Assembly: GCF_964213995.1 (NCBI RefSeq)
Contig: NW_027590155.1
Location: 434,001 to 498,000, forward strand
DNA length: 64,000 nt
Reading direction: 5' to 3'
DNA from: Mustelus asterias
Taxonomy: Eukaryota
The notes below the pieces were generated by a model, which searched no databases, was not told the DNA's origin, and saw only the letters and a program-made list of their open reading frames with translations. The translations under genes and the position numbers were made by a program. This document shows positions 59,226 to 63,696 of the stretch, piece by piece. Every line of letters begins with the position of its first letter. Position 1 is the first letter of the stretch.

Positions 59226-59472
59226 AATATTACCAATAATCTTCAATTCACAAAAGTTAATTAATATTTCACCAATTATTGTCAGTATTTTATTTGATGC
59301 GAATATAATTTCAGTTTATTTAGTACAATTCATTGAGATTCAAATGTATTGAGACAGCATTCGCCTTTCTGTCACGAAAGAATCAAATCTGCCTCAGAAT
59401 TCAGTGGGAAATTGATTTAAATCAGACCAAATAGTAGCAGCTACCCAGCAGCCTCTACGCTTTATTACAAGT

Positions 59473-59526
59473 AATCACCTCATCATCACACAGAAACTCC
59501 TGATAAATAACTGGAATGTGTGACCA
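59473..59526 (-). repeat. Right arm of the perfect 54-bp inverted repeat
   Basis: aatcacctcatcatcacacagaaactcctgataaataactggaatgtgtgacca. Confidence 0.9.
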
Positions 59527-61784
59527 TTTTTATAATGGCTGTATAACTGAAAGTATCTGTATCTAATATGAATTTATAGGAGCTTAAAAATCCCGATTCA
59601 TTTTTACACAGTTCTGGAAAGTAATTCAAAACTTCAAGCTGTCCAGTGAGTTACACAATATTTTCGTTGCCACATTATTTATTTATTAGGCTTCACTAAT
59701 TTGGGTGATGATCTGTTGAGTGATTTTGTTGCACTGGAAAGGCCACATGTTCCAAATATTACAACCCTCCCTCATCAACCTAATCATGTTCCCTCTTTCC
59801 ATTTTGGATTTGAAGATTTACCACCAACATGGGGAAAAATCAGACTAATCTTAGTGAGGTTCAATTCATTTGTTCCCGATATCCCGGGGATGGAATTCAC
59901 CCCGAAAATCTGGAAGGATTAAAGGTTGTAGACTGACACAATTGTAATAAAGGACTAGATTCGATTTTTGAAGTAGCAAAACACAAGTAAGCGAATGTAG
60001 AACAACAAATTTCAGGACCAGCTATCGTCGCATCCATCAGTCCATTCACTGATTCCTCAATGAAAACATTCAGGTATCCAACTATCGTTCATCCCTGCAT
60101 CAACACAGGCATTTATTTATTTCTTGTGTCGATGGTGGCGTAATATTAATGCCAGTGGAGCAGTAATCCAGAATCCCAGTGCAGTGATGTGGGAACACGA
60201 GATTAAATCCGACCATGGCAGCTGGTGGAATTTGATTTCAATCAATAAATCTGGATTCATACTTACAGCGACCAGATAAACCTCTCTGATTCCCCAATCA
60301 AGGAAATCTGCCATCCCTACTTGGTCTCACCAGGGTGTGACTACAGACAGGCAGCAATATGTGTAACTGGGCAATGCCTTCCGAAATGCCCTAGCACACC
60401 CCTCAGTTGAAAATAAATTAAGCACAGGAAACAAATGTTGGTCTTTCCAGAGACTCCCTCGTCCCATGGAAGAATCAAGTGAAATAAAACACAAGCATAT
60501 ATGTTTATGCAGTATAAGATATATCACCTCTCTGAATCAACTCTCACAATCTGCCTGTATTTATTTCTATCCATCGATCACAGTGTTTTGTTGTGTTGGA
60601 GAGATCGTCATTGTTGCTAACAAGGAGCCAGAGAAGATGGAAACCTTCTTTTCCAAAGAAATGGGAAACATTCATACAGGTTTACAACATTAAAAATAAT
60701 TAACTTGCCTCCAGTACTGTTGCTGGGTAGATTTATTTATAAATAGGCCCCATTGACAATGCTGAGAGTTTGAAGTTGGCTTGCAGCCAAGCGCTCAGTA
60801 CTGAGGAAACAGATCTTTGAGTTTCTGAACAAACACCCTCAGATGCTTCCTGTAAATATTTTCGGATATTTGGCAGCAGGTTGGACCGCTGCCAAGCACT
60901 GCGTGGACAGATTAACGTTAATATGTAAGGATAAAATGGGACTTAGCCAGTTATGCAATAAATGTCTGATTCCCACAAGTAAGACACGTTTTAAATGGTA
61001 TTCATTCCAAGCAAATACTTTTAATGAATGCACTGTTGATTATGTGATTAAACAGTATCGGAAACTAGTCAATTGGCTGGGTGCTATTTCATTTGTATGA
61101 CTTACAAATAAATGTCCTTCCAACAATTAAAGCCACTTTGTGAGCAACTTCAATGAAGTGCAGGAAAGAGATTTTGATGTCCCCAATCCCTCAGTCCAAT
61201 GAGATCAGTGTAATGGCCCAAACATGAAAATAATTAAAAGTAAAATAAAGTCATATAATTGCCTTGAACAGCGCGGATTCCTGGAATATTCTCAGTCTTC
61301 TGCCCCTCATTAGAAAGGCAACGTCTCTTGTACCTGAGTAGTACCATGTTCTAATGTGCAGCATAATTTGATTTTGATTATTTAACAGTGCCTCTCAGAG
61401 CTGCCAATCTGTGAAGAAATGTCCAGTTCATAACCTGGTTCTGTGGAAGATAAAGCATTTACTCTTGTGATATTGTGCAATATGCTGCAAAGTCCTGATG
61501 TCCTGTGCTCCCACTACCAGTGAATGTGAGACAGCCGGTGGTCAATAAGATGAGCTACAATGATTTGGATGCTGACGGAGAACTTTCCTGATCGCTGTGT
61601 CCGTCCTGATTTATTCAATTCTGTCAAAAGTCGATTTCAATTTTGTTTCTCTGCCAGCTCAATTAATTATAAGCCAACCAGGTTTCGTTCACCGCTAATT
61701 GTCACAGGGTTAAGGAGCTGTTGGAGAAATATAAAGTGTAATACTGTATCATATGAGGATTTTCTTTTTTGAATTCATTCGTGG

Positions 61785-62420: not shown

Positions 62421-62814
62421 TTGTATTCCCTTCTTCTTATATCCAGTCCCAAGTTACAGTGAAAGCTATCCACACCAGAAATACAATAAATCGATAATAA
62501 TTCCTTTAATGAATTATATTTTTGATGCAATGTGCTAGAGACACAGAATTATTGCAAATCAGATTGACATCTTTACCCTGATAAGTTAATGTCATCTTCT
62601 TTATGTCTATTCCCTTGTGGAGGGGTGGATAAATGAAGGGACTTAATTTACAATGAAATTGTATTTTTTTCTATAACAGAGGCTCAAATGCAATTTCACC
62701 TCTTGGACTAGCAGAGACATGACAATGGATCTCACTGTTACTGCCTCAGTGTTAGCCTATCTCTGGAATGTCGCAGTGTCAGCAATCAATTCATCGGGAA
62801 TAATCCTCAGTGTT

Positions 62815-63140
62815 TTTGATTGATTTGATTTGATTTGGTTTAGTTTCATTTGATTTATTATTGGCGTGCATATTAGTATACAATGAAAATTATTGTTTCT
62901 TGCGCACTATACAGAGAAAGCATACCGTACATGGAGATGGAAACGAGCGAGTGCAGAATGTAGTGTTGTAGTCATAGCTAGGGTATAGAGAAATATCAAC
63001 TTAATGCGAGGAAGGTCCATTCAAAAGTCTGATTGCAGCAGGAAAGAAGCGATTTTTTAGTTGGTTTGTACGTGTCCTAATACTTTTGTATCTTGTTCCC
63101 GGTGTAAAACGGTGAGAGAGTATGTTCGGGGTGTGTGGCC
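62815..63140 (-). mobile_element. Rex1-like 3' end, upstream of the VH exon
   Basis: gattt tail repeats and sequence paralogous to 10395-10700. Confidence 0.75.
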
Positions 63141-63174
63141 TTTCGTTTTCATTGTTTTCTTTATATTTTTACAA

Positions 63175-63696
63175 GTATCGAATCGGAGGTTATGTTCACT
63201 CAGCCAGAGGCAGAAACCGGACTTCCCTGAGGCTCCCTGAGACTGAGCTGTAAGGCCAACGCGTTGAATATTGGCAGCAACTGGGTGGTTCGGGTCCCAC
63301 AGGTCCCTGGACAAGGTTTATAGTGTCTTCTTCAGTAGGATAGATTTGGATCAACCTACAATTCCTCCGCCCCAGGGATTCAGAATCAATTTACTCCGCC
63401 CACAGACACTTAAAACAACGTAAAGAGAAAATGCTGCAAAATCTCAGCAAGTCTGGCATCATCTGTAAGGAGAGAGAAGAGCTGACTTTTCGAGCACAGA
63501 TGACCCTTTGTCAAAGCTTTTTCAAAAGGCCATCTGGACTCGAAACGTCAGCTCTTAGCTCTCCTTACAGATATTACCAGGCCTGCTGAGATTTTCCAGC
63601 ATTTATTCTTTTGGTTTCAATTCCAGAATCCGTGGTAATTTGCTTTTATACTTCAAACAACGTCGTCTCTTTGGAAATAACATGAAAACCGAAGAT
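63175..63696 (+). pseudogene. IGHV: Immunoglobulin heavy-chain V (shark IgM-type VH) pseudogene, interrupted and 3'-truncated
   Basis: IESEVMFTQPEAETGLP*GSLRLSCKANALNIGSNWVVRVPQVPGQGL*CLLQ*DRFGSTYNSSAPGIQNQFTPPTDT[insert]SNNVVSLEIT..KTED, following the elasmobranch IgM VH framework QPEAExGxPGGSLRLTCK/VRQVPGQGLEW/DTSNNIFALEMKSLKxED; acceptor mutated (acaa|gt); three stops before the insertion. Confidence 0.88.
63422..63649. mobile_element. Inverted (head-to-head) Penelope-type terminal repeat inserted in VH FR3
   Basis: ~95-bp imperfect arms centred on caaagcttt (~63512-63520); 14-bp TSD acttaaaacaacgt (63408-63421) / acttcaaacaacgt (63650-63663). Confidence 0.8.

Follow-up and report, generated by a model that had tools for sequence, protein, structure and literature searches.

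The antibody-type VH pseudogene near the end of the window (the whole stretch analysed, 64,000 nt of Mustelus asterias DNA; C123:434001-498000, NW_027590155.1) is most probably a long-dead duplicate of an IgM V gene. An intact IgM cluster begins 13 kb downstream of it, and its copies stand next to IgM clusters at many places; the region also has 19 assembled TCR-delta D-J-C genes, likely real miniclusters that were partly pre-joined by RAG in the germ line. With rather less assurance, a broader reading is favoured, in which TCR-delta turned from one gene before J-alpha into at least ten self-contained miniclusters among IgM genes, detached from TCR-alpha. Germline RAG would have specialised some of these: it would have made dedicated NAR-TCR genes whose second V is pre-joined, in convergence with TCR-mu, and on contig C138 a hard-wired IgM-V TCR-delta gene, a direct example of an antibody cluster giving rise to a VH-delta gene. 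The pseudogene is ordinary and marks a variant form of the shark Ig/TCR-delta complex; alone it is of little importance, and it is the context that matters.

The assignment of this segment to an IgM-type VH with stops, made for 63175..63696 in an earlier note on this DNA, was borne out. Four stops (63228, 63321, 63336, and 63411) interrupt the frame, which from 63177 runs IESEVMFTQPEAETGLP*GSLRLSC..., and a query with X for each stop matched 3345 distinct PDB sequences at E<=0.01, the top ones being antibody V domains (best 1e-18), with 0 matches for a wrong-frame query. Identity to the intact IgM V 13 kb downstream is 74.6% over 256 nt. The proposed span stands for its V part, and 63420-63649 proved to be a palindromic insertion with 100-nt arms that are 81% complementary, flanked by 14-nt direct repeats (63408-63421 and 63650-63663) that represent a target-site duplication; this insertion, a common repeat, may resemble the Penelope-type hairpin elements. 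The splice acceptor reads AA instead of AG at 63173-63174, the FR2 tryptophan is lost, and the leader exon of the intact IgM gene has no match in the region 5' of the pseudogene. Neither a YYC nor an RSS is recognisable 3' of its FR3. The pseudogene thus has none of the features of a functional IgM VH (leader exon, AG acceptor, open frame, YYC, and 23-RSS). Because acceptor, leader exon, frame, FR3, YYC, and RSS are damaged or absent, the gene is dead and, judged by its sequence, is unable to be spliced, translated or rearranged.

The pseudogene is closest to IgM V (49% identity to that of Triakis), followed by IgW-type V genes (34-41%, n=4) and TCR-delta-associated VH genes (32-36%, n=2), with no match to TCR V. 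The TAILV stand-ins in this comparison were P0133 and P0055, a label inferred from the scaffolds in Table S1 of PMC12227049. In a tree of 32 rows, three copies of the pseudogene formed one clade (100/97) inside an IgM/IgW group (92/85), in which IgM and IgW are not separated; the clade was set apart from TCR V at 100/99, and the VH genes near D-delta (TAILV-like) excluded it. This closest identity to IgM V, together with the matching intron and 5' flank (Table 1), points to an IgM origin. The 3' flank had no match to the IgM V-D-J interval, and no D or J of its own precedes the intact V 13 kb on; within the 64-kb window no D, J or C was seen, in agreement with the earlier note, which had found no D, J or C-mu there. 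The pseudogene is therefore best described as an IgM V gene that was duplicated and does not head a cluster of its own. An IgM V gene and its 5' flank would have been duplicated, would have decayed, and would later have been amplified with their neighbours by segmental duplication.

Copies of the pseudogene are numerous (40 listed of 179 candidates, 84-100% identity), and they share its lesions. The acceptor AG is kept in none of 13 aligned copies, the palindromic insertion is common to 11 of the 13, and the first stop to 10 of 12 unambiguous rows, which implies that death preceded amplification. Nineteen paralogous sites were picked, not at random but according to rank and the presence of a TCR V partner. 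An IgM V and JH follow 10-15 kb downstream on the same strand at 18 of them; the exception (C110:208906) has no IgM V in the 10 kb of downstream sequence looked at. By hand count, a TCR V pseudogene lies 24-52 kb upstream in the same orientation for at least 18 of the 40 matches listed. In the window this partner is the pseudogene at 12804..13129, which is co-duplicated with the pseudo-VH, and near-identical copies of the other TCR V exon (6299..6630) exist on other contigs. The two TCR-type V segments mentioned in the earlier note are present, 57 kb (6299) and 50 kb (13129) away; the 200 kb upstream of the window had no V or C matches. By its surroundings the pseudogene is a passenger of IgM clusters, and it plays no role itself in Ig/TCR-delta joining.

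The intact IgM cluster, V-D-D-J-Cmu, begins 13 kb downstream of the pseudogene, as expected by the alternative in the earlier note that the start of an IgH cluster had been reached. A NAR-type cassette, a second V, VH-like genes, and D-J-C-delta follow (Table 1), and beyond C-delta a new unit opens with TCR V genes, a further pseudo-VH, and a further IgM V. The same order (TCR V, pseudo-VH, IgM, NAR V-D-J, second V, VH-like V, D-J-C-delta) occurs at 6.99-7.17 Mb of C71, a 20.4-Mb scaffold on which the VH nearest D-delta is intact. The cassette is presumably NAR, a label taken from motif and layout. The layout of a NAR-TCR gene (V-D-J cassette, second V, D-J-C-delta) is present, and its parts are spliced alike in the NCBI model P0121. 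Among the Ig V genes it is the VH-like ones just upstream of D-delta and the intact IgM V that are positioned to serve TCR-delta, not the pseudogene.

Some minor features of these units deserve mention. The IgM TM exon region of C123 is duplicated, with copies 28 kb apart that are 96% identical over 2.7 kb. Four tandem perfect 23-RSS (a 61-nt repeat; C123:567431-567680) stand behind the second V, with two or three on C90, C110, and C111 and one on C71. The divergent V exon at C123:575463-575777, for which an RSS scan found none, has a very long branch, is 95-99% conserved in six other units, and has its place after the NAR cassette and before the VH-like genes.

Table 1. Position of antigen receptor features in the window (numbered from its first letter), downstream on C123, and at pre-joined D-delta segments on other contigs
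Feature	Position	Strand	Remarks
TCR alpha/delta-type V exon	6299..6630 (V 6299-6591)	+	open frame; 23-RSS heptamer at 6592; leader putative
TCR alpha/delta-type V pseudogene	12804..13129 (V 13129-12839)	-	frameshifted; 23-RSS heptamer at 12842
5' flank of pseudo-VH	59459..61673	+	homologous to region upstream of intact IgM V, 73.9% over 2288 columns (~2.2 kb)
IgM leader intron remnant	62730..62826	+	78% over 97 nt
Repeat within leader intron	62827..63163	.	similar sequence at 15 places in 464 kb
IgM-type VH pseudo-exon, FR1 to mid FR3	63173..63419	+	4 stops
Palindromic repeat insertion, 230 nt	63420..63649	.	splits FR3; similar sequence at 21 places in 464 kb
Remaining FR3 of pseudo-VH	63650..63695	+	80% to IgM V over 50 columns; 4-nt deletion
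Intact IgM V	C123:510457		
Two IgM D, then JH	C123, JH at 511998		
C-mu 1-4	C123:520392-524083		
IgM TM exons	C123:527738 and 556117		
NAR-type V-D-J cassette	C123:562004-563160		
Second V of NAR cassette	C123:567130		
Divergent open V exon (L018)	C123:575463-575777		
Two VH-like pseudogenes	C123:577948 and 580129		
D-delta	C123:595364		12/23 RSS
J-delta segments	C123, from 595630		
C-delta exon	C123:615229		
C-delta TM exon	C123:620864		
Second V of NAR cassette joined to D	C436, C119, C96		one shared junction, open
Second V of NAR cassette joined to D	C850		open; both ends trimmed
Second V of NAR cassette joined to D	C401		broken V; whole D after CC, consistent with P nucleotides
TCR V joined to D	C71:11.02 Mb		broken V
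IgM D1 fused to D-delta	C138		whole 17-nt IgM D1 and trimmed D-delta, at RSS coding ends

The constant exon of C123 is a C-delta by several measures. Its best PDB matches are human TRDC (E 1e-14 to 1e-13, against 1e-7 for TRAC), and it has a relative in the catshark model P0133, which would correspond to the IgWVTCRD gene of the scaffolds in Table S1 of PMC12227049. The CLXXXFXP signature described for trd (PMC10322711), rather than CLXTD-F, is present in all 19 copies of this gene. DNA and protein searches agree on these 19 places in the assembly, three on C71 (7.1, 11.0, and 12.3 Mb, with different neighbours) and 16 on other contigs. A TM exon accompanies every copy and a D-delta region all but one (18/19), and the constant frames are open throughout (19/19), with GT donors and AG acceptors at CP and TM. 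At the seven unjoined copies that were read directly, D-delta carries its 12/23 RSS and J its 12-RSS. The possibility that this 19-copy gene is a second, divergent delta was considered and rejected, as DNA, protein, and TM searches gave no other delta constant.

The copy number is a count in the assembled genome, not one of read depth. The coding sequences are of 16 kinds, which differ from each other at up to 44 of 485 nt, and this is more than two alleles could supply. Several pairs are 98.5-99.7% alike over about 10 kb, so that some copies may be alleles, and a safe minimum is 8-10 loci. Two DNA-like runs gave summed contig depths of about 6-29 over non-repeat C-delta bins, contigs by nature giving no copy number. 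TRDC protein clusters in sharks numbered 10 in Mustelus, 2 in Heptranchias, and 1 each in Pristiophorus, Scyliorhinus, and Rhincodon (clustered at 90%, with word limits; a weak count). Contigs of runs X2 and X3, taken as RNA runs from their spliced joints alone, splice C-CP-TM-UTR at GT..AG; they carry letters of other C-delta copies that C123 lacks, and expression of the C123 copy can therefore not be deduced from them. Since only 1.7 stops are expected under neutrality (P(0)=0.17), the open frames are not a sign of selection, and neither this expectation nor pN/pS of the Ig exon (about 0.8-0.9 in 5 of 6 pairs) gives any sign of selection on the C-delta copies.

Two C-alpha copies, 84% alike, occur in the assembly (C546:240150 and C71:18419395), preceded by J arrays that contain 140 and 34 J-like motifs, respectively. 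That there are only two, each paralogue appearing once, argues against wholesale duplication of haplotypes. No C-delta precedes J-alpha in 165 kb on C71 or in 33 kb on C546, and none was matched anywhere on C546; its one gap before J-alpha has flanks that align with gapless repeat DNA of C71. Seen from the other side, no J-alpha array directly follows any of the 19 C-delta copies; C115 ends just past its TM exon, and a link is possible there. C546 was also considered as a canonical delta locus and rejected, for its 140 J-like motifs and CLXTD-F signature make it TCR-alpha. Two D-delta-like segments with 12/23 RSS were seen upstream of its J-alpha array (C546:113600-138300, L051-L054), with no J-delta or C-delta between them and the array, the one gap aside; V-D-J-alpha joining there would satisfy the 12/23 rule. 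The 165 kb upstream of the C-alpha on C71 had no V match and contains zinc-finger ORFs and satellites.

D-delta is already joined in 7 of 18 copies, with five different junctions (Table 1), and is unjoined in seven copies that were read directly and four judged from full-length matches. The joins have the marks of RAG joints, namely breakpoints at RSS coding ends, agreement with the 12/23 rule, and trimming or P nucleotides (C138, C850, and C401); they were likely made by RAG in the germ line. It has been reported that Ig genes are joined in shark germ cells (PMC2193156).

The join on C138 crosses from antibody to T-cell receptor. It is of the 22-RSS to 12-RSS type, the fused D is open in all three frames, an intact IgM V (leader and 23-RSS) stands 0.44 kb upstream, and the sequence continues without a gap through J segments to an open C-delta. 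Compared with the C71 unit, 55 kb comprising JH, C-mu, and the NAR cassette are missing, and identity is 99% before the breakpoint and 96-97% after it. The junction is single-copy (1 of 37 matches). As its D-delta differs in type from that of the otherwise matching C71 unit, the parent was a similar unit or two units. The C138 gene is likely a germline record of an IgM-to-D-delta join.

Segmental duplication would have multiplied IgM and TCR-delta modules together. An IgM V (23-RSS) or D1 (22-RSS) upstream of D-delta (12-RSS) on the same strand could join it by deletion, and the known Ig-TCR-delta 'trans' chimeras would thus arise in cis; RAG in germ cells would have fixed some of these joins. 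IgM parts stand upstream on the same strand at 6 of the 19 C-delta copies and are inverted at C71:12.2 Mb, the other 12 having been surveyed over a shorter distance. Same-strand IgM upstream of D-delta means that deletion in cis is permitted under the 12/23 rule. At 11 of 12 sites no IgM exon lies within the 10-20 kb upstream of the NAR V, C96 alone having a TM exon there; no chimeric Ig-TCR-delta transcript was seen.

Three other explanations were weighed. It is improbable, though the least so of the three, that the pseudogene is an ordinary IgM passenger and that a locus with one to three real C-delta genes was expanded to 19 copies for the most part by haplotypes left uncollapsed or by misassembly. 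Most copies do lie on separate contigs with nearest neighbours 96-99.7% alike, three of them (C3311, C110, and C71:11.0) have identical coding sequences, the copy number is an assembly count, and the contigs of 240-580 nt that DNA-like runs gave across the gene are also expected of a single locus. These facts have to be reconciled, however, with the 16 distinct coding sequences and their differences at up to 44 positions, with the three C71 copies (7.1, 11.0, and 12.3 Mb), whose neighbours differ, with five different D joins, with the different upstream genes of C110 and C71:11.0 despite an identical coding sequence, and with C-alpha paralogues that each appear once. Much less probable still is the suggestion that the copies are real and their pre-joined D-delta segments, that of C138 above all, are somatic lymphocyte rearrangements caught in the assembly. 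Although four of the five junctions are single-copy, C436, C119, and C96 share theirs while their flanks differ by 2-4%, which indicates that it was inherited and then duplicated. In addition, the joins are half-finished with intact RSS left, the C138 junction lies 217 kb inside a 966-kb contig, and germ-cell joining of shark Ig genes is on record (PMC2193156), pre-joined IgM VD and DJ being present in this genome also.

A very small chance, marginally above that given to somatic joins, is left to a decayed TCR-delta-associated VH (TAILV-like), or an IgH V recruited into a TCR V array, as the origin of the pseudogene. The idea is suggested by its place 50 kb from TCR V segments, with a D-delta on its strand 98 kb downstream, and by VH-like genes without D-J-C near D-delta, both here and among the scaffolds of Table S1 in PMC12227049. 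It is largely refuted by the pseudogene falling outside the TCR-delta-associated VH rows, which it resembles least, by its retained IgM flank and intron, and by its closest paralogues among the matches listed (C107, C118, C108, C87, and C112), which stand beside IgM on contigs without a C-delta match. The co-option of this V by TCR proposed in the earlier note is unsupported on the same grounds, the pseudogene travelling with IgM clusters. That note was right that the region is shared with TCR alpha/delta genes, and the TRDC it proposed to locate on the same scaffold is the C-delta of C123. It had held that its interpretation would be disproved by a complete ordinary IgM cluster downstream on a scaffold free of TCR alpha/delta constants; an intact IgM cluster is there, and so is a TCR constant, 118 kb downstream. 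The preferred reading remains that of a dead IgM V duplicate amid real TCR-delta miniclusters.

In the elasmobranch antigen receptor complex described by Flajnik et al. (2025; PMC12227049), IgM miniclusters are interleaved with TCR alpha/delta V, NARTCR, and lone VH genes, and in the catshark IgM is found near TAILV and TCRD. Such interleaving being published, the segment flagged here is ordinary. In that system TCR alpha/delta is treated as a translocon, and Table S1, a set of chosen scaffolds and not a genome-wide count, has one delta constant followed by TCR-alpha in stingray and catshark, whereas in M. asterias there are 19, which have a D and J of their own and of which none is followed directly by J-alpha. 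In the nurse shark, IgHV-TCR-delta trans-rearrangements use an IgM V with D-J-C-delta (Criscitiello 2010, Deiss 2019, and Ott 2021, as given in PMC12227049, PMC5931798, and PMC6795676). Those joins are described there as somatic, whereas that of C138 is found in assembled DNA with the IgM V unrearranged.

The likeness to mammalian TCR-mu (PMC7615758) lies in a delta-derived chain of three domains, in clusters that are repeated and have a C apiece, and in a second V of limited diversity (here C436, C119, C96, and C850). According to the account in PMC7615758, TCR-mu differs in its VH-like first domain and in the marsupial second V, which is fully joined and thought to be retroposed; in M. asterias only V and D are joined, at RSS ends, and J still rearranges. 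By analogy, the M. asterias NAR-TCR genes are considered to work like TCR-mu without being a member of it. Germline-joined shark Ig genes (Lee et al., 2000; PMC2193156) likewise have coding joints at RSS ends in inherited DNA, and the newt has pre-joined TRD V-J with the same kind of joint, TRA separated from TRD, and possibly two TRD clusters (PMC12698447). The M. asterias joins differ from both in leading into a TCR D-delta, five separate times, with one crossing from Ig to TCR. A literature search found no report of many shark delta constants or of an inherited Ig-D to TCR-D join; its scope was the literature apart from Deiss 2019, Ott 2021, Criscitiello 2006/2010, and the PDF supplement of PMC12227049, any of which may bear on novelty.

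If the preferred reading is true, the miniclusters of this shark would show concretely by which route Ig-TCR chimeras may form in cis, and the animal would be a living model in which to study how VH-delta and TCR-mu arose. Two questions would then become testable: with copy-specific letters, whether each IgM V is paired with the neighbouring C-delta in chimeric chains, and by what means delta is excluded if rearrangement of alpha has ceased to delete it.

Pre-joined IgM segments were also noted, as V-D at C112:1191049 and C242:32660 and as D-J at C123:677053 and C154:651521, and a broken V-to-J exon precedes a divergent C-mu at C71:10998799. In Heptranchias perlo, two differing C-delta models (P0129 and P0131) share one contig, one of them behind a NAR-type J and a second V; the delta minicluster layout may thus be wider than M. 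asterias.
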